From a virus: a stretch of DNA of 64,000 nucleotides. Positions 7,688 through 56,379 of this stretch are shown here, piece by piece. The translations under genes and the position numbers were made by a program. The notes below the pieces were generated by a model. That model saw only the letters and a program-made list of their open reading frames with translations, did not search any database and was not told the DNA's origin. Within the stretch, counting starts at the first letter, position 1. Every line of letters begins with the position of its first letter. Location of the stretch: the UHGV virus genome UHGV-0141727, one strand, 5' to 3'.

Positions 7688-9073
7688 TCAGGTTTCCAGC
7701 CCAAAATCGCTTTGTTCTGTTTTGGCTTCGAACATCGTGAAGTTAAGCCCTTTCCCCTCTCCATGTTCCAGTTCAATCTCATTAGAAACAGCGGTCAAAA
7801 TACTACGTAGATCGACATCTCCACCGCCGAACATATCGCCCAACGCCTGCTGTTTATGAATCAGTTCGTCGTTGATTTTTTGTGCCATTTTTTTGAATGC
7901 AGCCCCCATGCGCTTCGCGCTTCGATTATTTGCCACGATGAATAGCGCCAACGCCTCAGCTTCCGGCGTGCTATCACCGAAGAGTCCGCGCTGGGCTATC
8001 ACCTCTTCCACTGCCTGACCGTTGTCTTTGGCTTCACGAACAAGGTTAATCGCGTCCTGGAGTGCTGCTATAGCCTGTTTATCCAGACCGTTCACCTGCT
8101 CTATACCATCAACCAGACCAGTTACAGCATCATGATGTGCATCGCCAGAAATCGACTGCATTTGCGCAAAGTCACTGGCTGCTGTATTAAGCGCGGTCAG
8201 GATATTGCGCATTTCCGGATCCGGTTCTTCCGCCACAAGCCGAACAAGTCGCTCATCCTTATAGGCTTTGGCAAAAATCGCATTCTGAATGCGATCGATA
8301 AGCTGTTTCGTTGGACGTCCATCGGCTGTAAGCAAACCTGCCGTCGCGGTATCGCCTATTTCGTGCAAAAACGCACGAATAAACGCATCATTGGACCGCG
8401 CCAGTAGATTGCCATCATCTGAAGGATTAAATAGCGCCATGACGCTCTCAGTGAGAAATTGCGCATCCGCATACGCTTTCTCACTTGCAGCCATCTCTTG
8501 CAGATCGCTGATGTTTGAGTCGCGTGCAAATTGAGCACGATCAACGTCAGTGAGGCGCTCGCGAACCAGTACAGGCATCACCATTGCCCTGACGTCTTCG
8601 GGATTAAGGCCAAACTCTTTAGCGTGATCGATAAGATATTGTCGGTAATCTTCAGCCTGCCCTTGTTCATAAGCACGCCAGATTCCCATGCTTCGACCAT
8701 TACCAGACTCAACGACATTATCCGGACCAACAATCGGGGAACCATGACTACTCATACCCGAATCAGTGAGTTGTGCCGGGCGTAAATTGGCGGCGATACG
8801 GTTAACCTGGAGCTTACTTGACAGTCGGGTGCGATCGCGAGGCTGGAGTTCCTCCGGAAATGACGGATTTATACTTCCGTCCAGGTTGTTAGAAATGATG
8901 AGCTTTTTGGCATCAATAACCTTGAACGCTGTTTTAACTTCGTCGCCTTTGCTGGTGACGACATAGCTGCTACGCCCCAACTTCGTCTCTTGCTTTTCAA
9001 GAGATGACACCACAGCGATAACCCCCTCAATGTTCGCTGCGGCTAGAAGTGCTGATGTTACGTTTTGAGTCAC
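7688..9073 (-). CDS. hypothetical virion-associated protein (last gene of Dar-like cluster)
   Basis: ORF 461 aa; position after DarA/DdrA-like genes. Confidence 0.3.
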   Translation of the reverse strand: MTQNVTSALLAAANIEGVIAVVSSLEKQETKLGRSSYVVTSKGDEVKTAFKVIDAKKLIISNNLDGSINPSFPEELQPRDRTRLSSKLQVNRIAANLRPAQLTDSGMSSHGSPIVGPDNVVESGNGRSMGIWRAYEQGQAEDYRQYLIDHAKEFGLNPEDVRAMVMPVLVRERLTDVDRAQFARDSNISDLQEMAASEKAYADAQFLTESVMALFNPSDDGNLLARSNDAFIRAFLHEIGDTATAGLLTADGRPTKQLIDRIQNAIFAKAYKDERLVRLVAEEPDPEMRNILTALNTAASDFAQMQSISGDAHHDAVTGLVDGIEQVNGLDKQAIAALQDAINLVREAKDNGQAVEEVIAQRGLFGDSTPEAEALALFIVANNRSAKRMGAAFKKMAQKINDELIHKQQALGDMFGGGDVDLRSILTAVSNEIELEHGEGKGLNFTMFEAKTEQSDFGLET

Positions 9074-9142
9074 AATTAACCACCTTTCTGTAAAAAAGGC
9101 AGTGTAAAAAGTGTGTTATTTCGCTGACTATTTTAAGAAGAA

Positions 9143-9168
9143 AGGGGCATTCTGCCCCTCTCTTTTAC
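9143..9168. terminator. hairpin AGGGGCA/TGCCCCT with flanking T-rich tracts
   Basis: stem-loop between 9165..9536 gene end and 7688..9073 gene start. Confidence 0.3.
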
Positions 9169-9536
9169 GCTGCATACCCGTTAGCTGAAACCCAGTTTAC
9201 GGTCTGTTCTTTGGCCTGGTCGAGTGTCAAAAATTCACCAATATATTGAGATATGCCTCTCAAAGCATCGATGAACTCCATTTGTGATGATTTAGTAAAT
9301 GCACCACTAAGGAAGTCAACAACAATTTTAGGCGTTTCTTGTGCCGCCGGTTGCACTTCCTCTTCTTGCTGTTGCGCTGGATTATTCGATGAACCAAGCC
9401 CCAGCTTCATCATCACTTCAACTATCCGCACGCCAATAGTGACACGTTGTACCGCAGTCGCGCTTTTTTGCGCTGACATCAGCTCAGACAGTTCTTTGCC
9501 TAAGCTAAGGCGCTCCGTTACTGATATTTTCACCAC
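9165..9536 (-). CDS. small protein, P1 DdrA-like position
   Basis: ORF 123 aa downstream of DarA-sized gene. Confidence 0.3.
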   Translation of the reverse strand: MVKISVTERLSLGKELSELMSAQKSATAVQRVTIGVRIVEVMMKLGLGSSNNPAQQQEEEVQPAAQETPKIVVDFLSGAFTKSSQMEFIDALRGISQYIGEFLTLDQAKEQTVNWVSANGYAA

Positions 9537-11482
9537 ACGCCCCCTTGTTGTATCTCTGCCAAAATGTTGATCAGGTGATCGGCTGCCGCACCAACAAGTG
9601 ACTCGTTCTCATCATATCGACCTGCGTTGATAAGAACATTAGCTGCCTCCTGAATGCGATCAAACTCCGCTCTAATCACCGTCAAATCACGGGACGTAAA
9701 CTGCAACGGCACGGATTTCAGATATTCCAGCGCACTGTCCGCCTCCTGATCAGCCTCACTAACGACTGGCCCATCTGAACCTGTATCAGACTCTTGGGGG
9801 GATTCAGGTTCAGACTCAGGTACTGGTACTGGTACTGCTTCCGGTGCCTGATCTAATGTCTGTTCAGCTTCGACTACTTCTGATTGATTCTGAAGCGCGT
9901 CATAGATATCCATTATAAAAAGGTTCTCCCCATCTCCAAGTGGATAAGCGACGTTAGGAAATGCTTTGCGGAAGAGGATTTTTATCTGCGCCTTAAAGGT
10001 TTTCAAGTCGCTTCCAAACAGATCAACATAGCCATCAATATGGTTCGACATACTGGACGCAACCAATTCGCCTGCAATCTCTTTCAATTCATCGTCACCA
10101 GGGAGATATAGCAACTCGTACTGACTGACTTCTTCGTCTGTCAGTTTGCGGTCATACGTAATGATTCCGTGACGAGCATATTCGTAATACGGATCAGCCT
10201 GATCAGGACGGTCAAGTACAGCTTTATTTCCTTCAGGAACCGCACCAACACCCGCCGGGCGAGATTGGAGCGCATAGCGATATTTACCAACCTCCAGGGG
10301 ATCAGGATGTGATTCTGGTTGTGGCTCCTGTTCAGGCTGCGGCTGATCAGTTGGCTCAGGCTGGCCCGGCAACACATCCACTTTGTATTGATCAGCATTA
10401 TGTTCACGATAGGCTTTAAGTAATTTGGTTGCAGCGTCCGCTGAACTCCCACCTTTAACAGCACTGACATCAATACTGAAATTGCCTTCTGGTGCCTCAA
10501 TCGTGACAAAGCTATCACTGCCTGACGTGACATACTTAACTACAGCACCATTATCCAGCGTTGTTTGGCCTTCTGTAGCAAGATTATGTTTTATGTGTCG
10601 CAGTTGATCATTGAAGGCACGCTCTTTAGTTCCTTGGCTCTTAGCTGACAATAAATTATCGCGTTTAGCCTGCAATTCCGCGTTAAGGGCTTTTTGTGCG
10701 TCTAATTTATTCTGCATATCATTGAGTGTTGAGCGTTTCTCTGCCAGCCCCCGCTGTGCGTCTTCAACCTGCTCAATCAGCACAGAACGTTCTTCTGCCA
10801 GCTTGTCGGCTTCATTGAGATACCCCTCAATATCAGCCTTCATTTTGTCTTGGCGCTCCTTTGCTTTTTTGAATTTTGCACTATTACGCTCAATGAGGTT
10901 AGAAAGCGCCTGGCATACCTGGCTCAGAGATACATCACGCCCACCGATTGGCGCAACAACATGCGTAACGTTTCTTTTGTTAAGAAGAAACTGAAACGCA
11001 ACCAGCTCGTCATCCCCTTTAATTCTTGTGCCGTCTGCGGTTGGAGAATGGAAAATTATGCTTGTCGTTTGCCCATCGGTTAGAGGTATTTGTGCTGTTA
11101 CAACAGGGATATTAGCAACCCGGCGCACGCGCCCAATGATTGCCCCACCGATACTATTACGTCCGTCTTCATATTCACCTGCCTCATCCGTACCCGCAGC
11201 AATGTCAGTGCCATTCAGGCCGCGATTAAGCGCCCGGACAAATGCTCGCATTGTTTGCGCTAACCGCAATTTTGTTGTGGTTATAGCTTCGAACATTGCC
11301 TCATTGGTAGTTACCAAAATTTCGTTGCCCATATAGGCCAGCTCGATATCTTCCAGCGTCGCAGGCTCGATAAGTAAATCATCCTCGGTGATATCTTCCG
11401 CCACCCAACGATTAGGCGTATATCCAGTGAGCGTATCTGCAAAAGTGGACTGGATATTTATTCGAATAGGTTTCTTTATCAT
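9530..11482 (-). CDS. large internal head/antirestriction-type protein, P1 DarA-like by size and synteny
   Basis: ORF 650 aa with central coiled coil and acidic Pro/Glu-rich linkers; follows LydA/LydB/Hdf-like genes as in the P1 darA operon. Confidence 0.35.
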   Translation of the reverse strand: MIKKPIRINIQSTFADTLTGYTPNRWVAEDITEDDLLIEPATLEDIELAYMGNEILVTTNEAMFEAITTTKLRLAQTMRAFVRALNRGLNGTDIAAGTDEAGEYEDGRNSIGGAIIGRVRRVANIPVVTAQIPLTDGQTTSIIFHSPTADGTRIKGDDELVAFQFLLNKRNVTHVVAPIGGRDVSLSQVCQALSNLIERNSAKFKKAKERQDKMKADIEGYLNEADKLAEERSVLIEQVEDAQRGLAEKRSTLNDMQNKLDAQKALNAELQAKRDNLLSAKSQGTKERAFNDQLRHIKHNLATEGQTTLDNGAVVKYVTSGSDSFVTIEAPEGNFSIDVSAVKGGSSADAATKLLKAYREHNADQYKVDVLPGQPEPTDQPQPEQEPQPESHPDPLEVGKYRYALQSRPAGVGAVPEGNKAVLDRPDQADPYYEYARHGIITYDRKLTDEEVSQYELLYLPGDDELKEIAGELVASSMSNHIDGYVDLFGSDLKTFKAQIKILFRKAFPNVAYPLGDGENLFIMDIYDALQNQSEVVEAEQTLDQAPEAVPVPVPESEPESPQESDTGSDGPVVSEADQEADSALEYLKSVPLQFTSRDLTVIRAEFDRIQEAANVLINAGRYDENESLVGAAADHLINILAEIQQGGVW

Positions 11483-12940: not shown

Positions 12941-13156
12941 ATGCATATGATGGCCCGGTGGTCCGTAAACCTCGTCACTCAGAGCGTGGAGGATGCCAAA
13001 TTCGCGTATCAACAAAATGGTCCAAACACGGCTTTAAAGAGAAATACGCTTGAATGCGCAAGATGTGAGCTGATTCTTGAGGACAAAATGATGACATGTG
13101 AGTCTTCACAAGCGTCATTCAGTGAATATAATACCGACTCTCTCAGATACTACTAA
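12941..13156 (+). CDS. small hypothetical protein
   Basis: ORF followed by strong terminator 13172-13207. Confidence 0.2.
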   Translation: MHMMARWSVNLVTQSVEDAKFAYQQNGPNTALKRNTLECARCELILEDKMMTCESSQASFSEYNTDSLRYY

Positions 13157-13171
13157 CTGGGTGTTCATTAT

Positions 13172-13207
13172 GCCCGCCGTCATTGACTAGACGGCGGGCT
13201 TTTTTTG
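13172..13207 (+). terminator. rho-independent terminator
   Basis: 9-bp stem GCCCGCCGT/ACGGCGGGC followed by TTTTTTTG. Confidence 0.6.
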
Positions 13208-13322
13208 TGCCGAAGGATAGCGTTGCTCAAAAAAAACACAAAACCGCACGCTAATGAAGCCCTCAACAAAAGAGGGCTTGAAATATCAAAAAAAATAGTG
13301 CTGATTGGATTGTTATGATTGT

Positions 13323-13745
13323 TTATGCAGGCATCTCAGGCCATGAGATATCTGCATCAACAGAAGTGTCAACTCTATTAAGAAGAACTCTATACCTCTT
13401 TAACTTTGTCAACATTTCTATTTCCTCATCAGTGGCAATATCCATATCAACAGCATCCTGAAGCGTTGATATTTTTATGCTCACATCATTCATAAGACTA
13501 CTTTTGGTGTTTTCAGCAATGCTGACTCTCTCCTCTAAGCTCATAGGTTGTGGGTCAGATAACATTGGATAACCATCGCCATTTGCAATTATTATTTTCC
13601 CATTGCCATACCCTGATAACAGTTCATCATATAAGTCATCAGGTATATGTACAGCATCGGACGGCCATGAACCGTTTTTATCGTAATCTTCTTTTAGTCT
13701 ATCGTCGTAGAAACCACCAGTCTCTTTGCTGTAATACTTTGCCAT
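13323..13745 (-). CDS. tail fibre assembly chaperone
   Basis: 140-aa ORF directly downstream of tail fibre gene; typical Tfa size and N-terminal region. Confidence 0.6.
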   Translation of the reverse strand: MAKYYSKETGGFYDDRLKEDYDKNGSWPSDAVHIPDDLYDELLSGYGNGKIIIANGDGYPMLSDPQPMSLEERVSIAENTKSSLMNDVSIKISTLQDAVDMDIATDEEIEMLTKLKRYRVLLNRVDTSVDADISWPEMPA

Positions 13746-13776
13746 TTAAAAACCTTCATTCTAATTAGCTATATTT

Positions 13777-16700
13777 TTAATACCCATAAGCAACATACTG
13801 TGCATATATTTTATCAGTGGAGCTACTTTTTACTGTAAAACCAGTGGCAGAGTTGTTGTATGTATAAAGAATTGCATTAACAGCATTCCCGCTATGAGGT
13901 GAAATCACAACTGCCGCACACGACTCAGGAAAAGAAGTCGGAAATTTAACTACGCTTCCTGGAGTAACAGCCGCTATAGTCCCCCACTGCATCATCACCT
14001 TAGTTGATGTATCCTTATGCCATCCATGAATGTTGGCATATGCAGTATTTTTAGCCTGATATTTCGTGTTGAAATTACTATAGTTACCAGGGGTAATCTG
14101 ACCAGCGGCAGATAAATTCCCCATAACCCTTACATGACCATCAGCACGTCCTAATTCTACGCGACCATCACCGCCATCTATCTTTAATGGAGTGTAAACG
14201 ACATCACCATTAACATTTTGCCCAGTGGTTGATATCTGGAAACTATATCCAGTATTAGTTATTAGGAATCCATAGTTATTATTATAAGTTAGGCGTATAG
14301 CATTTTGGCTGCTGGATATAATTTCACCGGTAACAGTACCACCTGTTGTTGGTAACGCACCAACATGACTTGCCGTTAATGTGATATCTGCAGAACCATC
14401 AAAAGCCACGCCACTTATTTTTCTGGCAGTTTTTAACTTTGTAGCTGTAGCTGCATTGCCACTTGTATTTTGATTCCCGGCAATATTAACGCCCGGAAGA
14501 TTGATGTTTGCTGAACCATCAAACGAAACCCCGCCTATTGTGCGTGCTGTTTGCAGTTTTGTGGCAGTTGCAGCATTGCCGGTAGTGCTCTGATTGCCTG
14601 TTTTATTCACGCCCGGCAGGTCGATGTTTGCGGTGCCATTAAATGAAACACCACCAATAGTTCTTGCCGTTTGTAATTTCGTTGCAGACGCCGCGTTTCC
14701 GGTTGTGTTCTGGTTGCCCGTGGTATTTACACCAGGGATGGAATCTTTCGATGTGTAGACCTGCGCCCACTCAGACCAACTAGCTGTATCAGTATCTCGT
14801 CGCGAACGTACATGTACAGGCGCATGAGCACCACTTGTACCGCTCCAACCTATGAACAACTCGCCTTCACCAGCGGCTGTTGCGCCCTTAAGATGAAGCA
14901 CATTCCCGTAAGCAGAAGGATAGCCGTTGTTGTACGCCTCATACATCTGCAATCCAGTGGTAGCACCTTGCGTTGTACTGGTGAGCGCAGTAACACGCCC
15001 TCTGGACGTAATTGTTGGTATCGAAATGTTCGCAGAACCATCAAACTTAACACCGTTGATTGTGCGGGCTGTTTGCAGTTTTGTAGCGGTTGCCGCATTA
15101 CCTGTTGTGTTCTGGTTACCGGCAATGTTCACACCCGGCAGGTTGATATTGGCGCTGCCATCAAATGCCACCCCGCCGATTGTGCGGGCCGTCTGAAGTT
15201 TCGTTGCGGTTGCCGCATTACCGGTTGTGCTCTGATTACCCGTTTTATTCACGCCAGGCAGGTCGATATTAGCACTGCCATCAAATGACACTCCACCGAT
15301 CGTTCGAGCTGTCTTGAGCTTTGTGGCAGTATCGGCGTTCCCGGTCAGCGTACCAGTAATCCCACCGCCAACTTTTACGCCGTTACCGATGGACACCAAC
15401 CCAGTTCTTAAGTTTATAGAAAATGGTCTTAATGGCCCGATGTCACCATTTTCACCCTCCCCTTCATTTGTCGGGATAAGATGAAGATATTCCTCGGATC
15501 TCCTGAAGATAAGGCCAAAGGCCTGGTTAAATATTCGAAGGGCATTTATTGTGCCAATTTTTAGCTGCCCCCCCATTGTGTCGCCAGAACGCTGAACGGC
15601 GTTACCAGCTTGAGAAGCAATATCCGTTAAGCCAAGATCTTCAGGGGTCAGAGTAATATCTGCCGAACCGTCAAATGCCACACCGTTAATCTTTCTGGCT
15701 GTTTTTAATTTCGTCGCAGTATCGGCGTTCCCGGTCAGCGTACCAGTGATCCCCGCGCTGAAAGTCTGGCGTGCACTCCATGTGTTAGCCGTGCTCAACA
15801 GGGGGATTTTTTCACCGCTGGTACCGAGTTCTCTTAAACCAAGGTATTGGATAACAGCCAGAGTGCTTGTTTTAGCCAGAATATCGCGACCGACTGACGT
15901 TAAATCAGTCTGGGCTACAGTGTCTGTTCCGGTAAAGTACGGTAATTTATTTGCCCCCGTCGCCAGGCCAGCGAGCGCGGTTAAGGTTGCGTCGAGAGGC
16001 TGCTTACCTGCAAGGGCATTTGTCATTGTAGTCGCAAAGTTCGGGTCATTGCCCAGTGCTGCGGCAAGCTCATTCAGGGTATCAAGAGCTTCTGGTGATG
16101 AGCCGACCAATGCAGAAATAGCGGCACGAACATAAGCGGTTGTTGCAATCTGAGTGTTGTTCGTACCTTGTGACGCCGTAGGAGCTGTTGGAACCCCCGT
16201 AAATGCCGGGCTTAATAACGGCGCTTTAAGAGCTAACGCATCATTAATCGTCTGGCTAAACTGGGGATCATTGTTTATTGCATCTGCAATTTTTTTCAGC
16301 GTATCCAACGCTGAAGGAGAACCATCAATAAGGGCGGTTATTGCGGCCTGAACAAAGGCAGTGTTTGCGATTTGTGTACTGTTTGTACCTTGTTCCGGAG
16401 TTGGAGATTTAGGTATACCAATAAACTCCGGGCTATCAACCGGAGCTTTTAGTTTGTTTAACGTGCTGATAGCAAGAGGTGTTGCGGCTTTATATTCTTC
16501 GTCACTATCCAAAGCACTGGAAAACTCAACACCAACAGCACGATTAGCACGATATTCAGTGCTAATCATATCTGCGGTAACGGCTTGAGCATTGTCAGGC
16601 ACGATCACGCGGCATAGCTCAATCTGGTTAGATGCTATTTCCTCATCAACGAGAGCAATAATTCTCGCTGCGCTAATATCCGATGAACTATCTACCTGGC

Positions 16701-24869: not shown

Positions 24870-25081
24870 GGCGTTGAGGTATTCTGTTGTGGTTGCCTCG
24901 TCTTCTGCCGGATTGATGTCTGAATATTTCAGGGCATCTTTCACAGTAGGTGCATGAAACTGAATTTCTATTTCAGGCTGTGAAGGCAATGGGAATTTGG
25001 GAATGTTCAAGGATTCCTCCAGAAAAGTCGGTACTCGTTTGGCTGGAGGATAGGGAGTGTGTGATTTTGACTTTAACCTAT

Positions 25082-25190
25082 TTATCCACAGGGTAGATCC
25101 AATAAATAGATCCCAAAGAGAACCAGTAAGATCCAAAGAAGATCCCGGATCGCTGCGAGCCGCGCCATCACTGGCCTAAATGGAGATCAA
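25082..25190. promoter_or_regulatory. origin-proximal region: DnaA box TTATCCACA plus cluster of six GATC sites
   Basis: perfect DnaA box at 25082-25090; GATC sites within ~100 bp upstream of iterons. Confidence 0.55.
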
Positions 25191-25295
25191 CATTGACTAT
25201 GTGCGATTTAATGTTGACTATGTGCGATTTTATGTTGACTGTACGCGATTTAATGTTGACTATATGCGATATAAACATTGACTGTATGCGATAAT
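25191..25295. repeat. five direct ~19-bp iterons at ~21-bp spacing upstream of repA
   Basis: units (C/A)(A/T)TTGACT(A/G)T(G/A)(T/C)GCGAT repeated 5 times. Confidence 0.75.
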
Positions 25296-25372
25296 TCTCT
25301 CAGCCCTCAGACGGCTGTGGATAAGTATCTTTCATTTGGCTATAAAGCCCCGTCAATCAAGGAAATAACAGG

Positions 25373-26257
25373 ATGGTAGATGACAAAAAAGGCTTTCTGA
25401 ACGTTGAGGAAATATCAGGGAATACCGGAGAAATCCACAGCTTAAAGCCTAACAATAATAGCACTATTCAGCCGATAGCTTTGTTGCGGCTTGGGGTGTT
25501 TGTTCCCACATTGAAATCTACCAGTGTTGCTTTACGTCGCAAGAACGCCGGTTTAACTAACTCCACTGATGCGACAGAAGAACTGTCCAGCCTGAAGATT
25601 GTAGAGCAGGAAGGGTATCAGGGTATTGAGATTCATGGGCCACGTCTGGATATGGATACTGATTTTAAGGTGTGGATAGGCATTACATCTGCATTGTTTG
25701 ACTATAAACCAGATAATGATGGTGTGATCACCCTGACATTCTCTGAATTTGTGGATCGTTGCGGTTATCCAAGGAAGCGGCTGTCCAAGGCTTTTCGCAA
25801 GAGCATTGGCGACTCTCTAACGCGTATTCAGCAGACGTTGCTGAAGTTCAACTTGCCCACCAGCAAAGAACATGTTCGTTATATCCAGATGAATTTATTG
25901 GCATTTAGTGAACTTGATACTGAAAATGACATTATAAGAATCCAACCGCAGAAGCAGTTGTCTGAGTTGTATTACGTTGACTATAAGCGAATATTGAAGC
26001 TCAAAATGCTCGATAAACTTGGCAGGAAAGAGACAGCCAAGGTGCTTTATACGTTTTTCGAAGCGTTACCTTCAAACCCTGCGCCAGTGAGTATTGAGCG
26101 CCTTCGCGCCAGATTGAACCTCAAATCATCGGTTAGCGTTCAGAACAGTGTGATTCGTAAAGCCATGAAAGACTTGGAAGCTGTTGAATATCTTAAATTT
26201 TCAGAGATAAAGAATGGTCGGAAAATAGGTTTCCAGATCCATAAACGAAATCCATAA
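25373..26257 (+). CDS. repA: replication initiator RepA (P1 RepA-like)
   Basis: 294-aa ORF recalled to resemble P1 RepA in conserved blocks (VQPxAL(L/M)RLGVFVP, GPRLDMDTDFK, YTFxExLP) (recalled from memory, not searched); flanked by iterons. Confidence 0.8.
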   Translation: MVDDKKGFLNVEEISGNTGEIHSLKPNNNSTIQPIALLRLGVFVPTLKSTSVALRRKNAGLTNSTDATEELSSLKIVEQEGYQGIEIHGPRLDMDTDFKVWIGITSALFDYKPDNDGVITLTFSEFVDRCGYPRKRLSKAFRKSIGDSLTRIQQTLLKFNLPTSKEHVRYIQMNLLAFSELDTENDIIRIQPQKQLSELYYVDYKRILKLKMLDKLGRKETAKVLYTFFEALPSNPAPVSIERLRARLNLKSSVSVQNSVIRKAMKDLEAVEYLKFSEIKNGRKIGFQIHKRNP

Positions 26258-26487
26258 CATTGACTGTGTGCGATTCCAAGCGTTGACTATACGCGACAAA
26301 CATTGACGCTGGCGGATTTAGTTATTAACTTTTTCACATGATCAATGGATAAACCAGCTATTTCATTGAGTATTTGTCGCTTATAGTCAATCTTTCCTCA
26401 TTTCTTGTCGTGTGTAGTCAATGTTTTGTGATCGGGATCGAGTACAGTCAACATTAGTTGTAAGCCATTTCGCCTATAGTCAACATT
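26258..26487. repeat. downstream iteron array (three direct, four inverted copies)
   Basis: TTGACT/AGTCAA cores of the same iteron family in both orientations. Confidence 0.6.
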
Positions 26488-26504
26488 TCTCCATCAGCAG
26501 TCTT

Positions 26505-36424: not shown

Positions 36425-36708
36425 TATGACACCTGAAAAATTGCCTCACCATTAGCGATGACTGAGCCACAAGAAAGGGGATCTCCCACACAAACAACTC
36501 CTTTCCCGCCTATTACAAACCATGAGCGCGTCGATACGGCTGATCCGGGGTGCGCGCTATTTCCGTCTGTATGGCTGGGGAACGCTCCCCCATCTACAAC
36601 CACTGGCTTTCCATTTACGGTAAACCAGGAAACTGTTTCTGCTACAGGTCGCGGAGGGAATCCTCCATGACCAGAACAAACTGTGTCACTGGTCGCAATT
36701 GCACTCAT
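36424..36708 (-). CDS. PAAR-domain spike-tip protein
   Basis: 94-aa ORF with CSGHGG, VNGKPVVVDG and CVGDPLSCG motifs. Confidence 0.55.
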   Translation of the reverse strand: MSAIATSDTVCSGHGGFPPRPVAETVSWFTVNGKPVVVDGGAFPSHTDGNSAHPGSAVSTRSWFVIGGKGVVCVGDPLSCGSVIANGEAIFQVS

Positions 36709-36777
36709 CTAACACCTCCTTTTTCTTAAATCTTCTCCACTTTGTGATTTTCACTCTTCAGATTTCTTACTTCTCAT

Positions 36778-36957
36778 ATTTGTCTCTGATTTGTCTCAAA
36801 AGGGTATCATTGGTACATCATGTATCATCTAAGTCTCTTTTGTGTCTCTTTTGTGTCTCTAGTTTGATGCTTTTTACGCTATCTAACTTCTGGTCTTATT
36901 TTGTTTTCTCATATAAAATTCAATTCTTTCTCAAATGTGTCTCAGAAGTGGAGCAAT
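36778..36957. repeat. parC-like centromere/promoter repeats (TTTGTCTC and TTTTGTGTCTC units)
   Basis: at least five copies of TGTCTC-containing unit upstream of parM. Confidence 0.5.
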
Positions 36958-37917
36958 ATGATGCGCATTTTTATCGACGATGGTTCTACCAATATCAAAA
37001 TGCTGTGGGAACAAGACGGGGAAACTCGAACCCATATCTGTCCGAACAGTTTTAAACGTGGATGGTCCGCCACATTTGGCGCAGGAAAGCCGTTTAACTA
37101 CATCATTGATGACGAAAAATATTCATATGACTTGATCTCGCCGGATGTGCTGCCGACGAATAACGTTGAATGGCAATACAGCCCGCTTAATGTGCTTGCT
37201 GTTCATCATGCCCTGCTTACAAGTGGCATTGAGCCTCAAGAAGTGGAAATAGTTGTCACGTTGCCACTGGCAGAGTTTTATGACGACGACGCACAATACA
37301 ACATGAAAAATATTGAGCGGAAAAAGGCCAGCCTGATGCGACCAGTCACCCTTAACAAAGGTCAGGTTTTTACTATCAAAAAAGTGACTGTGCGCCCGGA
37401 GTCAATACCCGCAGGGATCGGTCTGTGCGACAGCCTTGTGCCAGCGCATTCTGTGCTTATTGTTGATCTTGGTGGGACTACTCTGGATGTGTCGATGGTC
37501 GCCGGGCAAATGACCGCCGTTTCTCGCGTATTTGGCGATTCTAATCTCGGCGTTTCGCTGGTAACTAAAGAGGTCAGACAGGCACTTGCAAAAGCGAATA
37601 CCGAAACCTCTAATTATAATGTCGATCAATTAATCATTAATCGTGATGATGAGGATTATTTGACCGACAATATTAACGATCCGTCTGCTATTGATGATGT
37701 TAAGAAAGCCATTTCGTCAAGCATAGAACGACTCCGTACACGCGTACTGGATGTGATCAGTGATTTCAAAGGATACACGCATGTTATGGTCATTGGTGGC
37801 GGCGCGCCGCTTGTTGCTGATGCTATCCGTGAGCAGGTAAACATTCGTGACGATAGGTTTTTCGTTGCTGATGATCCACAACTTGCTCTTGTCTATGGTC
37901 TAAAATCTATCGGTTGA
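36958..37917 (+). CDS. parM: actin-like plasmid segregation ATPase ParM (StbA)
   Basis: ORF 36901..37917; ATG 36958 with GGAG RBS; recalled resemblance to R1 ParM in N-terminal blocks (FIDDGSTNIK, ICPNSFKR, VIGGGA) (recalled from memory, not searched). Confidence 0.8.
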   Translation: MMRIFIDDGSTNIKMLWEQDGETRTHICPNSFKRGWSATFGAGKPFNYIIDDEKYSYDLISPDVLPTNNVEWQYSPLNVLAVHHALLTSGIEPQEVEIVVTLPLAEFYDDDAQYNMKNIERKKASLMRPVTLNKGQVFTIKKVTVRPESIPAGIGLCDSLVPAHSVLIVDLGGTTLDVSMVAGQMTAVSRVFGDSNLGVSLVTKEVRQALAKANTETSNYNVDQLIINRDDEDYLTDNINDPSAIDDVKKAISSSIERLRTRVLDVISDFKGYTHVMVIGGGAPLVADAIREQVNIRDDRFFVADDPQLALVYGLKSIG

Positions 37918-37927
37918 TGAGGTTGCC

Positions 37928-38293
37928 ATGTCTCAGGAACGTCGAAAAGTATTGTTTTATCTTCGTCCTGGTCTTAACGCCAGTGAGCAATATGCTGATG
38001 CAAAACTTGAGGGCCATCCATTAAGAGATCGCAATGATATGGCGCGCACAGCGATGCTTGCAGGTATCGCTCTTGGCGAGGTTGATAGCAGATTACCTCC
38101 CATGTTGGCATCGCTTTTATCCGGTGATAATAGCCCTGAAGTGATCAGAAAAATGCTGGTTTCATTTCTTGAAATTTCGCCTGAAGTTCGGGAAGCCTCT
38201 GAAGGAAACACCTCTGTCTCAGAGGATGTAAAAAAACCAGGCGTTCCGAAAAGCCGCTCTGCACAGAATTTGGCAAACTCACTCCCTGATTAA
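37928..38293 (+). CDS. parR: ParR (StbB)-like centromere-binding adaptor
   Basis: 121-aa ORF immediately downstream of parM. Confidence 0.55.
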   Translation: MSQERRKVLFYLRPGLNASEQYADAKLEGHPLRDRNDMARTAMLAGIALGEVDSRLPPMLASLLSGDNSPEVIRKMLVSFLEISPEVREASEGNTSVSEDVKKPGVPKSRSAQNLANSLPD

Positions 38294-38329
38294 CCAATCT
38301 ACATCTTCAAAGGCTGCAATTTGCAGCCT

Positions 38330-38578
38330 TTTTTATACCGTTATGGTTCTGGTTTGGTGCTCTTTTAGTACCAAAACGGTGTTGTTATGGTGCTGCTTTG
38401 TATCTGGTTCCACTTTGGGGCTGATTTCGTGTTAAACAGGATGCAACAGAGGGCAAATTTAGAGTGTTTAGTGTTATACTTTTGCAAAGCATAGTGACTC
38501 CACTATAGAGCCAAAACCGCATCAATAAGGCTTCTGTTTGGAACCAGTTTGATACCAAAATAACACCGAGGAACGGAT
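38330..38578. repeat. centromere-like repeats (ACGGTGTT(A/G)TT units) upstream of parA
   Basis: multiple direct and inverted copies of AACGGTG/GGTGTT motif. Confidence 0.45.
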
Positions 38579-39220
38579 ATGATTATATTGGTAGTCAGCC
38601 AAAAAGGTGGCTGTGGAAAATCAACCACAAGCGTAAACATCTGTGCGGAGCTTGCCCGCGAAAATAAGGATGTAGTGTTACTAGATGCAGACAAGCAAGG
38701 AACAGCTGCCCGCTGGGCAGCTGACCGTAACACGGCAGAGGTTTCTCCTGTAATTCATTGTGTCCAGAAGTTTGGTAATATTCGAGAAACACTTCTCGAT
38801 CTGGATAAGCGTTATGAATTTGTAGTTGTTGATACAGCCGGGCGCGATAGCAAAGAGATGCGTACAGGCATAACCGCTGCAGATATTGTGTTGGTCCCAT
38901 TCAGACCATCTCAACCAGATTTAGACACGCTGGCACACTTTGTTGAAGTGTTTGAAGAGGCTTTGGACCTGATGCCTAATCCTAGCATTAAGGCGTTCGC
39001 AGTCTTAACAATGGCCCCATCCAATCCGGTTGTGAATGAAACCAATGAGGCCAAAGAGTACCTAGCTGAATATCCGCAACTGAAGTTGCTGAAAACCATC
39101 ATTCGTGATCGTAAGGTTTACCGCGATTGCATGGCTGAAGGGAAGGGCGTTGTTGAGATGGACAACGGGAAAGCTAAAGGTGAAATCCAGATGTTGGTTA
39201 AGGAGTTATTAAGTGATTAA
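38579..39220 (+). CDS. parA: small Walker-type partition ATPase ParA (type Ib)
   Basis: 213-aa ORF with deviant Walker A KGGCGKST. Confidence 0.7.
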   Translation: MIILVVSQKGGCGKSTTSVNICAELARENKDVVLLDADKQGTAARWAADRNTAEVSPVIHCVQKFGNIRETLLDLDKRYEFVVVDTAGRDSKEMRTGITAADIVLVPFRPSQPDLDTLAHFVEVFEEALDLMPNPSIKAFAVLTMAPSNPVVNETNEAKEYLAEYPQLKLLKTIIRDRKVYRDCMAEGKGVVEMDNGKAKGEIQMLVKELLSD

Positions 39221-39500
39221 GCCTCGTAAATCGGTAAAAGCCCCCGAAGTAAAAGACCCCGATCTTGAACGCCGAATTGAGGATTTTGCCAGTAAGGCTG
39301 ATTTGGTGCCGGGTGAGCAACCAGAAGACAACAAAGTGCTCGATAAGGACGCCCCACGTGATTTTAAATCCATTCGTGTTGGCTTCAATGAATACGAGTA
39401 CCAGGTACTTGATGCGTTAAGCAAAAAGCATAATCGCAGCAAATTGAATATGATCCGCCATGCTATTCTCATGCTTGCAGAGTCTGAGGATACAAAATGA
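39213..39500 (+). CDS. ParG-like RHH centromere-binding protein
   Basis: 95-aa ORF overlapping parA stop; C-terminal RHH-like segment. Confidence 0.45.
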   Translation: MIKPRKSVKAPEVKDPDLERRIEDFASKADLVPGEQPEDNKVLDKDAPRDFKSIRVGFNEYEYQVLDALSKKHNRSKLNMIRHAILMLAESEDTK

Positions 39501-39506
39501 CGCCGG

Positions 39507-39610
39507 AATAACACCGTTTTGGTTCCATGTGTTATTTTGAAGCTATTTTGATGCCTTTTTAGTACCAGAATGGTGTTATTAGTGTACCGTAACGGTGCTT
39601 GTTTGATGTT
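39507..39610. repeat. centromere-like repeats downstream of partition operon
   Basis: AATAACACCGTTTTGG, AATGGTGTTATTAG and AACGGTG copies related to the upstream set. Confidence 0.4.
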
Positions 39611-39635
39611 ATAAAAGCCCCATATGGGGCTTTTC

Positions 39636-40478
39636 TTAATTAAGCGTGGCTATAATGTCGTTAGCTATCATTCGCGTTGATGCTTTACAGGATACAGAGC
39701 GACGGGATGGCATAGGATACACCTTGAAGCCATTGCCAACGTAAAGTTCGCGAATGTTAGGCGCTCCACTGTTTGTTATCACAATTTTCGCCCCGCGTCT
39801 GTGAGCATCTACCAGCAGCGACACCAGCCGTTGTTGATCTTCAAACCTAAAGCTATGCCCTGAGTAATTTGTAAATCCGGTAGTGTCGGGCAATGGTTCA
39901 TAGGGGGGATCGCAGAAAATCACATCATCATTCCCGGCAGCCTCAATTACACCAGCAAAATCGCCGGACACAAATTCCGAATACTTTGAAATATCGTCAG
40001 CCAGGAACGCCTCCATTTCCGCGAGAGGGAAGTGGGGTGATTTCTGCTTTCCATATCCGACGTTGAACTCTCCTTTACGGTTATAGCGAGTGACGCCATT
40101 AAAACAATGACGATTGAGATACAGGAACGCCGCTGCATGGTGAAGGGAATCATAAGCACCATTGTTGAATGCATTGCGAACATTCAAAAATGCATCAGCA
40201 GAGTTGTAATCCTGAAAAAAACGATATGCCAGTGTGATAAGAGAATGCCCTTCACGCTGCAATGTCTGATAGAAGTTAATCAGGTCATTATTGATATCGT
40301 TCAGCAGGTTGCTTTTAAATCCGGCATTAGTGAAAACAGCGCCACCTCCAACGAAAGGTTCTATCAACCGTTTTCCGTGGGGCAGGTGTTCGAAGATAAT
40401 GGGCAGTGCAGAAAATTTGCCGCCGACCCACTTAAAGACTGGGCGATCAAATTCGTCCTCCGAGCGAATACGTCGCAT
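39636..40478 (-). CDS. dam: Dam-like DNA adenine (N6) methyltransferase
   Basis: ORF 39636..40670; FKWVGGK, FLYLNR...RYNRKGEFNV and DPPY motifs; ATG 40478 places motif I near the N-terminus. Confidence 0.75.
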   Translation of the reverse strand: MRRIRSEDEFDRPVFKWVGGKFSALPIIFEHLPHGKRLIEPFVGGGAVFTNAGFKSNLLNDINNDLINFYQTLQREGHSLITLAYRFFQDYNSADAFLNVRNAFNNGAYDSLHHAAAFLYLNRHCFNGVTRYNRKGEFNVGYGKQKSPHFPLAEMEAFLADDISKYSEFVSGDFAGVIEAAGNDDVIFCDPPYEPLPDTTGFTNYSGHSFRFEDQQRLVSLLVDAHRRGAKIVITNSGAPNIRELYVGNGFKVYPMPSRRSVSCKASTRMIANDIIATLN

Positions 40479-48207: not shown

Positions 48208-48503
48208 ATGTGGAAAGCAACCCGTTTACCGGTTGGCAATTCAACGTCCAGACTCAACTTTCCACCCATAGCCTCAACGTAACGTTTAAGCGTTGCTACT
48301 TTCAAGTCATTGCCTCGTTGTTCAAGTTTTGTGATGGCTGGTTGACTAATTCCCATCGCATCGGCAACTGTTTTTTGTGATAACTGAAGCTCCTCTCTCA
48401 ACATCTGCAATCCGACTTCCAGAATCATTTCATCAGCCTGCTCTTTGATACGAGCTTGGCTTTCAGGGGATTGCGCAGCAATAACTTCTCTTAGAGTTCT
48501 CAT
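48204..48503 (-). CDS. XRE-type HTH antitoxin-like protein
   Basis: 99-aa ORF with HTH, immediately downstream of RelE/HigB-like gene. Confidence 0.5.
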
Positions 48504-48850
48504 TATTTTTTCTCAAGTTCTGCAAGATGGTTGGAAAATTCGTCGTCTGCAATCCGTATCATTCTTTCGTAGAACTTTTTATCGTTACTCTTATCTCCGG
48601 CGCACAGGATTATGGCTTGCCTTACCGGATCAAATGCGAAGAATGCTCTGATAGGGCGACCAGCGTACTGAATCCGTAACTCCTTCATGTTTTTATGGCG
48701 TGAGCCTTTAACTGTGTCGGCATATGGCCTTGATAATGAAGGGCCATATGTTTCCAGATTGATCAGGTCAACCAGGATTTTTTCTTTTAATGCAGGTTCC
48801 TGTTCCTGGAACCATTCATCAAAAATTTTTCCAAAATAAATTTGCCACAT
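48503..48850 (-). CDS. RelE/HigB-like addiction-module toxin
   Basis: 115-aa ORF; ELRI...GDKS motif pattern; precedes two HTH genes. Confidence 0.5.
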   Translation of the reverse strand: MWQIYFGKIFDEWFQEQEPALKEKILVDLINLETYGPSLSRPYADTVKGSRHKNMKELRIQYAGRPIRAFFAFDPVRQAIILCAGDKSNDKKFYERMIRIADDEFSNHLAELEKK

Positions 48851-48885
48851 AGTTATTCAAAATCCTTTTTAATAAACTACATGTT

Positions 48886-48922
48886 ATAAACTACAGGTTA
48901 TATCATATAACCTGTAGTTTAT
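48886..48922. promoter_or_regulatory. 37-bp perfect palindrome in promoter region of toxin-antitoxin operon (candidate operator)
   Basis: ATAAACTACAGGTTATAT C ATATAACCTGTAGTTTAT. Confidence 0.5.
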
Positions 48923-48955
48923 ATTTTCAAGGCCATTTTTTATTCGATTTAGCAT

Positions 48956-55027: not shown

Positions 55028-55520
55028 AGGTTTAACGCCCGCACAACTGGCAGAGCGTAACGCTGAGTATGTAACGGAAATTTCCCGACTTGAGAAAGAG
55101 CGCGCGGCGCTGGCGGCGGAGAATGCACTTGCTCGTAAAGCTGTTCAGGCATTCTGTGATGTTGTTGGCGACAACACTGAGATTATCTCCGAGTTGGTTG
55201 GGCGAGATGGCGTTCTGGTTATTTTGGAGGCCATGAAAGTAACAGGAAATATGCCAGCCACCGACGCTTTCCTGGCTGAAATACGTGCGGAGGCACGCAA
55301 CGAGGGGATTAACTACACCGCAAGCCGCCTTGCTGCCGCTTTCAACCACGGATTTATCAATAAGTCTTTACGTGAAGTTTTCGACGTTACACGCATGATT
55401 CTGTCAGCGAAAGAAGAGTTGGCTAATGAACCGCACCCAATTGATGGCCTGTCCGGTGAATATGCGGAGAAATCCCTTGAAGAATGGGCGGAACAGATTC
55501 GCAAAGGAGTTCAGTCATGA
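55017..55520 (+). CDS. Ea22-like protein
   Basis: [12 protein letters not shown] motif shared with 56701..57411. Confidence 0.5.
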   Translation: MKSEGLTPAQLAERNAEYVTEISRLEKERAALAAENALARKAVQAFCDVVGDNTEIISELVGRDGVLVILEAMKVTGNMPATDAFLAEIRAEARNEGINYTASRLAAAFNHGFINKSLREVFDVTRMILSAKEELANEPHPIDGLSGEYAEKSLEEWAEQIRKGVQS

Positions 55521-55750
55521 GCATCCGAACTGAACATGGATTTGGTCCGTCAACGGTCGAAGTCGAATGGCTTGATGATTGCCCTAAGTGCCAGCACGGC
55601 AAAGCCAAGGTAACAGGATGGTCGGTAACCAAAGATTCTTTGTGGGCGGGTGATGAGGCCGTCTGTTCCAAATGCGGTCACAAAGGCGAAATCGATGCTG
55701 ATGGAGAGAATGCCTGGGTGGAATGGGACGAAATCGAGGAGGCACAATGA
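55517..55750 (+). CDS. small zinc-ribbon protein
   Basis: ORF 55484..55750; ATG 55517 with AAGGAG RBS; CPKCQHG...CSKCGH. Confidence 0.4.
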   Translation: MSIRTEHGFGPSTVEVEWLDDCPKCQHGKAKVTGWSVTKDSLWAGDEAVCSKCGHKGEIDADGENAWVEWDEIEEAQ

Positions 55751-56379
55751 GCAATATCGACACACTGGCGCTGCGTGAGGCGGCAGAACGTGCAATTCCG
55801 GCAATGGAACGCCTGTTAATGTTGCCAGTTGATGATGATCTGATAAGTGAACAGGAACTTAAAGATTACGGTGTGGATATTGATGCGCTCAACGCCTTCA
55901 AATTTCTGGCCGGACCAGAAACCGTGCTGGCACTACTGGATGAACGGGAAAGAAACCAGCAATACATCAAACGCCGTGACCAGGAGAACGAGGATATTGC
56001 GCTAACGGTAGGGAAGCTGCGTGTTGAGCTTGAGGAAGCAAAATCAAAACTCAACGAGCAACGCGAGTATTACGAAGGTGTTATCTCGGATGGGAGTAAG
56101 CGTATTGCAGAACTGGAAGCACGGGAAATAAAACCAGCCAAAGGTGAAGTTCTTGTCGTTGTTTCTGGTTTTACTGGTTGCGGAAAAAGCGCCATTGCCG
56201 GGGAAATAGAAATCGCGATGAAGGCTATTGGTGTACCGGTTCAGTGGACTAATGGCGATGCGGAAAAGCGCATGACAGGAGCTGACTGGCTGACAGCAAT
56301 TGAGATGTACAAACCAACTGTGCGCATCGTGGAAGTTAATGTGCCACGCGCCCCTGGCATTCGCATCAAAGGAGAGTGA
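55747..56379 (+). CDS. Ea22-like protein with Walker A-like C-terminal region
   Basis: N-terminal [10 protein letters not shown]...KDYGVDID module shared with 60980..61732; GFTGCGKS motif. Confidence 0.5.

Follow-up and report, generated by a model that had tools for sequence, protein, structure and literature searches.

The window analysed here, a 64,000-nucleotide stretch of the viral genome UHGV-0141727, carries a cassette that we consider, with high probability, to be a working partition operon of type II (ParMRC) that belongs to a D6-like plasmid prophage, and its most likely role would be to keep this prophage from being lost at cell division. The first-pass annotation had proposed a type II ParM/ParR/parC system at 36778-38293, and that identity is borne out by protein family models, by the similarity of the two products to R1 ParM and pB171 ParR, and by a conserved array of 11-bp repeats. 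Of the two boundaries, the end was placed correctly, as it coincides with the parR stop codon, whereas the start clips a weak iteron unit at 36768-36778.

The parM and parR genes

The parM gene (36961-37917, plus strand) is predicted, on the strength of Pfam, PDB and D6 comparisons, to encode an actin-fold partition ATPase of 318 amino acids. Its product scores 233 bits (2.1e-69) against PF06406 (StbA_N) and 189 bits (8.8e-56) against PF21523 (the ParM C-terminal domain), the cut-offs being 24.6 and 27.4 bits, respectively. The first-pass annotation had proposed a resemblance to R1 ParM across the conserved blocks, and the resemblance indeed runs the full length of the protein: the R1 ParM structures (1mwk/4a62) match it end to end (residues 2-319) with an E-value of ~1e-110, and pairwise alignment gives 54% identity. 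The pairwise alignments further show that DDGSTN (phosphate-1), PESIP with E148, DLGGTTLD with D170, and GGGA are all kept, the R1 numbering of E148 and D170 having been verified. In R1 ParM, DDGSTN, E148, D170 and GGGA are motifs of nucleotide binding and hydrolysis. With the NCBIfam ‘ParM’ equivalog NF010498 the protein scored 19.6 bits, far under the cut-off of 417; since Pfam and the R1 structures match decisively, we treated it as the model of another ParM lineage and set it aside.

The start of parM was assigned to the ATG at 36961, which is the start used in both RefSeq pEC361_3 and the D6 record and which lies 7 nt downstream of a Shine-Dalgarno sequence, GGAG (36950-36953, plus strand). 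Two other starts were rejected: the mechanical open reading frame beginning at TTG 36901 is too long, D6 and RefSeq starting elsewhere, and the ATG at 36958 is likewise not the one that D6 and RefSeq use.

Comparison with D6 bears directly on whether the gene works. StbA of D6 and the window ParM share 94% of their amino acids, and codon analysis of the two genes shows saturated synonymous sites (pS 0.73) together with a dN/dS of ~0.013. Purifying selection on parM is thus very strong, which argues forcefully that the gene works, and the cassette as a whole very probably functions.

The parR gene (stbB; 37928-38293, plus strand) starts 11 nt past the parM stop and encodes a predicted centromere-binding adaptor of 121 amino acids with an N-terminal ribbon-helix-helix (RHH) region. 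That ParR follows parM had been claimed beforehand, and the family and structure matches agree: the protein scores 53 bits against Pfam PF10784 (Plasmid_stab_B, cut-off 25), matches the PHROG 8671 ‘partition protein’ at 4e-56, and is matched by the pB171 ParR structure 2jd3 over residues 3-81 (E 3e-7). A predicted RHH-type ParR is thus found directly downstream of parM.

The window protein ends in ...SAQNLANSLPD. When five diverged ParR types are compared, a tail of the form A(R/Q/K)NL(A/K)(N/D/G)SLPD occurs in four, namely those of the window, D6, Klebsiella/Raoultella and Proteus/Providencia; the fifth, from a more distant P1-like relative (L021), ends differently in ...NSAIKRFSSQFPE. The same four types keep both the N-terminal RHH region and the C-terminal tail, with a linker between them that varies. 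This pattern is what would be expected of a DNA-binding head joined to a ParM-docking tail. The R1 ParR tail aligns weakly with that of the window protein, with two invariant residues, A112 and L115. Overall, the window ParR is 58% identical to that of D6.

The parC-like iteron array and the ends of the operon

Upstream of parM, about 13 units with a TCTC core stand in exact 11-bp register, arranged in three blocks over ~190 bases, and several of the 13 are degenerate. Block A (36768-36822, plus strand) holds five 11-bp units with the cores TTCTC 36771, GTCTC 36782, GTCTC 36793, GTATC 36804 and ACATC 36815, the last two of which are degenerate; at this position the D6-type and Klebsiella-type relatives also have a block of three TCTC cores in 11-nt steps. 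Block B (36819-36862, plus strand) holds four units, shifted in phase by 7 nt relative to block A, with the cores GTATC 36822 (weak) and GTCTC at 36833, 36844 and 36855. From the third core of block A to the first strong core of block B the distance is 40 nt in window-type, D6-type and Raoultella loci alike. A repeat-free spacer of 40 nt (36863-36902, plus strand), in which a weak candidate promoter lies, then separates block B from block C (36903-36946, plus strand), whose four units end just short of the ribosome-binding site. The cores of block C are TTCTC 36906, AATTC 36917 (weak), TTCTC 36928 and GTCTC 36939, and its last unit, TGTGTCTCAGAAG, is near-invariant across nine representative relatives.

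Both the enrichment and the phasing of the repeats are far beyond chance. In the 181 nt from 36765 to 36945, GTCTC occurs six times where its frequency in the remainder of the window predicts 0.074 copies (Poisson P 2e-10), and no other 181-nt stretch of the window, on either strand, holds more than two copies. Five pairs of neighbours lie exactly 11 nt apart, whereas none of 20,000 shuffles gave more than two such pairs. The cores also appear to be constrained: when six sequences of the window type are compared, the nine TCTC cores show no variation at any of their 36 positions, as against 13 variable positions elsewhere in the array, and the comparison of core with flank gives a Fisher P of 0.03 when five-nucleotide cores are used.

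The arrangement is also shared. In 26 relatives (20 loci from IMG/VR and 6 from GTDB genomes, with ParM 71-100% identical), the region upstream of parM has the same layout: a block of roughly three cores is followed, after the conserved 40-nt step, by another block, and beyond a spacer comes a proximal pair. This layout is kept although the surrounding sequence cannot be aligned. The earlier suggestion that the upstream repeats look like a parC centromere therefore holds up in their number, their 11-bp phasing and their recurrence, and we regard the array as a candidate parC, its centromere function being inferred from these features. The organisation is that of R1 parC, where the promoter has a set of five 11-bp iterons on either side and ParR binds these iterons both for partition and for autorepression (PMC2241845).

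The control signals around the operon are of unequal clarity. A scan of 36600-39600 with the sigma-70 consensus found no site at threshold in the parC region. Reading by hand, we noted a weak promoter candidate with TTTACG (36873-36878), an 18-nt spacer and TATTTT (36897-36902), and an alternative -10 candidate, TAAAAT (36914-36919), which falls inside block C. In the D6-type and L021 relatives, a TAAAAT or TATAAA is placed about equally far from the ATG; the TAAAAT of the Proteus-type leader is much further upstream and not comparable. The P1 C1-operator consensus has no match in the window at up to 3 mismatches, so nothing here points to control of par by the phage repressor. At the other end of the operon, a predicted intrinsic terminator (38309-38334, plus strand) is made of a GC-rich hairpin of 10 bp with a T run after it. 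RNA folding gives it -14.5 kcal/mol with a z score of -5.2, none of 200 shuffles being equally stable, and the hairpin, which also scored as an inverted repeat, is kept in D6.

Additionally, the proximal-iteron sequence TGTCTCAG has two more copies inside parR, at 37929-37936 across the start codon and at 38215-38222 near the 3' end, and 8 of the 32 GTCTC copies of the window sit within the 1.5-kb cassette. The copies in parR may be additional binding sites for ParR or may simply reflect the coding sequence.

The host element and the ParA-like cassette downstream

On one side the cassette is flanked, as in D6, by genes for sheath and capsid, upfB and upfC/PAAR, and on the other by the ParA-like gene, orf61, dmt and rdgC. 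The P1 proteins 22, 23, upfB, upfC and hrdC match the window at 31-57%, and the near-identical complete plasmid pEC361_3 is annotated with phd/doc, higBA, a Cre-like recombinase, a phage repressor, RepL and pacA. Taken together, the synteny with D6 and the phage and plasmid gene set of pEC361_3 place the element, by sequence, among the D6-like phage-plasmids, the P1-g2 group of relatives of phage P1 (PMC7969092). Its ParMRC lies 10.5 kb away from the replicon, in a divergent region with upfC on one side and dmt on the other.

Seven E. coli and E. marmotae plasmids of ~90 kb have the cassette at 98.5-99.2% identity, and at ~80% identity, for parM only, the matches extend to phage D6 and about 100 more plasmids, nearly all of them non-mobilizable, from Escherichia, Salmonella and Shigella. 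PLSDB has the cassette in 120 plasmids, of which 118 are non-mobilizable; of those listed, most are ~90 kb in size. Among complete E. coli genomes, 101 of 5,426 carry it, once each and always on a plasmid, and in 18 of these 101 it is of the window type.

Copies also occur in chromosomes, in Klebsiella sp. WOUb02 (L025, 3001-4344), K. pneumoniae ATCC 13883 (L029) and a Raoultella sp. (L024). These Klebsiella/Raoultella cassettes are 77-79% identical to the window's and have intact parC-like iterons, parM and parR. In Klebsiella sp. WOUb02 the neighbours are ordinary genes of a housekeeping type: an AraC regulator and a GH4 glycosidase are encoded to one side, the CbpM/CbpA-like and TerC genes lie to the other, and no mobile-element gene lies within 3 kb of the cassette.

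The window and pEC361_3 are otherwise 98-99.5% collinear but differ in the replicon cassette (25068-26486). The window version encodes a Rep protein 40% identical to P1 RepA and has 19-bp iterons, TTGACTATGTGCGAT, spaced by 21 nt at 25193-25296 and 26250-26494; it matches NZ_CP085065.1 at 98.7%, and pEC361_3 has a different RepB-family gene at this site. To judge from these alignments, elements that are otherwise 99% identical have exchanged their replicon cassette. Further mosaic patches, at 7727-9760, 12950-16140, 48212-48955 and 55127-56355, are 80-90% identical to pEC361_3 or missing from it; outside them pEC361_3 is 98-99% identical to the window.

Downstream of the parMR terminator, and separated from parMR by it and a 285-bp region, lies a pair of genes on the same strand that may form a second par locus. 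The first, parA2 (38579-39220), encodes a ParF-like short ParA of 213 amino acids, and the second, orf95 (39213-39500), overlaps it and encodes a candidate RHH protein of 95 amino acids. The parA2 protein is full length and scores above the cut-offs of Pfam CbiA and AAA_31; it matches ParF of TP228 (PDB 4dzz) with an E-value of 1.5e-18, and reaches 163 bits with NCBIfam ParA_partition, below the 180-bit cut-off. The orf95 product has a weak Arc-like RHH match to PHROG 3431 (E 4e-4) and no match in PDB or Pfam. Upstream of parA2 (38335-38578), hexamers of the TGGTNC type, in both orientations, are enriched about ten-fold, the motif having been picked after looking. We therefore describe parA2-orf95 as a candidate type Ib-like locus in tandem with ParMRC.

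This pair has a history of its own. Over 38551-39450 of the window, aligned to D6 (L001, 7625-8525), parA2-orf95 is 95-100% identical at the nucleotide level with a pS of 0.01; in sharp contrast, the DNA beside it (parM, parR and the intergenic region) is 40-85% identical to D6, with synonymous sites saturated. Near-identity amid flanks that align at 70-80% points to a recent exchange of this cassette alone between two old lineages. In L021, parMR is kept without parA2 and orf95, which suggests that of the two systems ParMR is the conserved one, with the ParA cassette as an accessory. In D6, the glutaminyl-tRNA synthetase gene glnS is inserted between orf61 and dmt (L001 8575-10552), and the window has no such insertion at the corresponding 39500-39636. 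Together with the state of L021, this insertion suggests that the interval from parR to dmt behaves as a variable cargo slot.

From these data one can build a broader proposal, which we hold tentatively and consider rather doubtful: that D6-like phage-plasmids carry ParMRC in tandem with an accessory type Ib-like par, that the modules, to judge from a ParA cassette 99-100% identical in nucleotides to that of D6 beside a parM saturated at synonymous sites and from the swapped replicon 10 kb away, are shuffled independently, and that the diverged ParR/parC versions represent distinct incompatibility types. If so, partition incompatibility between the GTCTC type and the (A/T)TCTCA type would shape which phage-plasmids co-reside.

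Function and comparison with known partition systems

In the searchable literature we found no experiment on the window cassette or on that of D6. By homology to R1 par and pB171 par1, we infer that the operon acts through binding of ParR to the iterons, filament formation, autoregulation and plasmid stabilisation. In the array upstream of parM, ParR dimers would occupy the 11-bp TCTC-core iterons cooperatively and wrap them into a segrosome, in which the clustered C-terminal tails of ParR would hold and stabilise the growing ends of ATP-ParM filaments. Elongation of the filaments would then drive sister copies of the low-copy plasmid prophage of ~90 kb to opposite cell poles. Since the iterons flank and overlap the promoter region and reach the ribosome-binding site, occupancy by ParR would be expected to autorepress parMR as well.

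Three other readings have to be weighed against this one. The downstream pair at 38579-39500 could take over some or all of the partition work, and it could be the real partition system of the element, with ParMR redundant or mainly an autoregulated accessory. The idea draws on the full-length, ParF-like character of the ParA-like protein and its ParA_partition score, on the weakly Arc-like RHH partner, and on the enriched hexamers upstream. Two par loci on one plasmid also have a precedent in pB171. They are known in Shigella pINV, too (PMC6519299). Yet that same score stays under the model's cut-off, parMR persists in L021 where parA2 and orf95 do not occur, and the purifying selection on parM is extreme; besides, ParMR and ParA systems need not exclude each other. 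We thus judge it unlikely that parA2-orf95 does the work and ParMR does not.

Much less credible still is a use of ParM filaments in the lytic cycle, for positioning phage DNA or assembling virions, instead of in prophage inheritance. The cassette does lie among late morphogenesis genes (upfB, upfC/PAAR, capsid and sheath) and far from the replicon; however, close homologues with the same iteron array exist outside phages, in MobI-linked elements of Proteus/Providencia and in Klebsiella chromosomes, the operon is built like an autoregulated par operon of plasmids, and neither a late-promoter signal nor a P1-type C1-operator signal was found. The least probable of the three, which we reject, takes the TCTC repeats for replication-origin iterons or an unrelated regulatory array with no centromere role. 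Plasmid origins bear iteron arrays as well, and the TCTC array sits in a divergent intergenic region. What decides against an origin is that the replicon lies 10.5 kb away with its own, unrelated 19-mers around the RepA-like gene; moreover, the TCTC array moves with parM and parR through plasmids, phage-plasmids and chromosomes that have different replicons, and its 11-bp period and its place upstream of parM match R1 parC. The reading of the cassette as a parC-parM-parR partition operon is accordingly the one we retain.

As a member of its family the operon is ordinary and already annotated within a known phage-plasmid lineage, for it has been recorded in D6 and in about 100 E. coli and Salmonella plasmids. 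The GenBank record of D6 (2018) names orf58 and orf59 ‘StbA type’ and ‘StbB type plasmid stability protein’, PGAP names ParM and a plasmid partitioning/stability protein in more than 100 plasmids, and the partition genes of the D6-like Salmonella plasmid pYU39_89 are given as parM, stbB, parA and cop (PMC6799933). What is gained here is an explicit map of the candidate centromere that can be used for stabilisation or incompatibility work. The annotation detail is useful for phage-plasmid typing and leaves knowledge of partition systems or of D6-like elements unchanged.

Compared with P1, the cassette has the same role as the type Ia ParA-ParB-parS system and sits in the same general neighbourhood, from gene 23 to dmt, but it has no sequence relationship to ParABS. 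The P1 record places parS-parB-parA next to repA, between gene 23 and upfA, whereas the window par is 10.5 kb from its replicon. In a tblastn search at E 1e-3, P1 ParA and ParB matched neither the window nor the complete pEC361_3, whose annotation lists no ParB. The first-pass annotation had called a type II system unusual for a P1-like element, with P1 itself using type Ia ParAB. The statement about P1 is correct; ‘unusual’ does not stand, because type II partition, though unlike P1 itself, is the norm for the D6 branch. The D6-like (P1-g2) branch of the P1 group thus has an actin-like ParMRC in place of P1's ParABS.

With R1 parMRC the window operon shares the order parC-parM-parR, the 11-bp iterons in separate blocks, and a spacer that parts the blocks upstream of parM (B from C in the window). 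The differences lie in the details of the centromere and its binding protein: R1 ParR is ~28% identical to the window's, its iteron cores are of an ACCCA type unrelated to TCTC, and its array reads five iterons, 39 bp and five iterons, against three blocks with a 7-nt phase shift here. The host replicon differs as well, being a conjugative IncFII plasmid for R1 and a tailed-phage plasmid prophage for the window. The closest solved relative of the window ParR is 2jd3, from par1 (StbA/StbB) of pB171. That plasmid also carries a type II par locus beside a short-ParA type Ib-like par locus, the two being divergent around a shared centromere region. The window pair resembles it in this juxtaposition and differs in that its two loci are tandem and on one strand, not divergent around a shared centromere region.

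The nearest known counterpart is the StbA/StbB pair of D6 (orf58/orf59; MF356679 / NC_050154), which occupies the same place, from upfC to the ParA-like gene and dmt, in the same operon layout. D6 and the window agree in their proximal iterons, ribosome-binding site and terminator. The distal iterons are (A/T)TCTCA in D6 and GTCTC(T) in the window, the two parC regions are unalignable at 33-55% identity, and the glnS insertion is present in D6 and absent here. Because megablast had matched only parM to D6, we suspected for a time that parC and parR had been swapped, and dropped the idea: parM too has saturated synonymous sites, and the dN of ParR (0.29) is close to that of the neighbouring upfB (0.34). 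Divergence of ParR/parC on the scale of a neighbouring gene suggests an old split between the window and D6 operons under different constraint, with no module swap.
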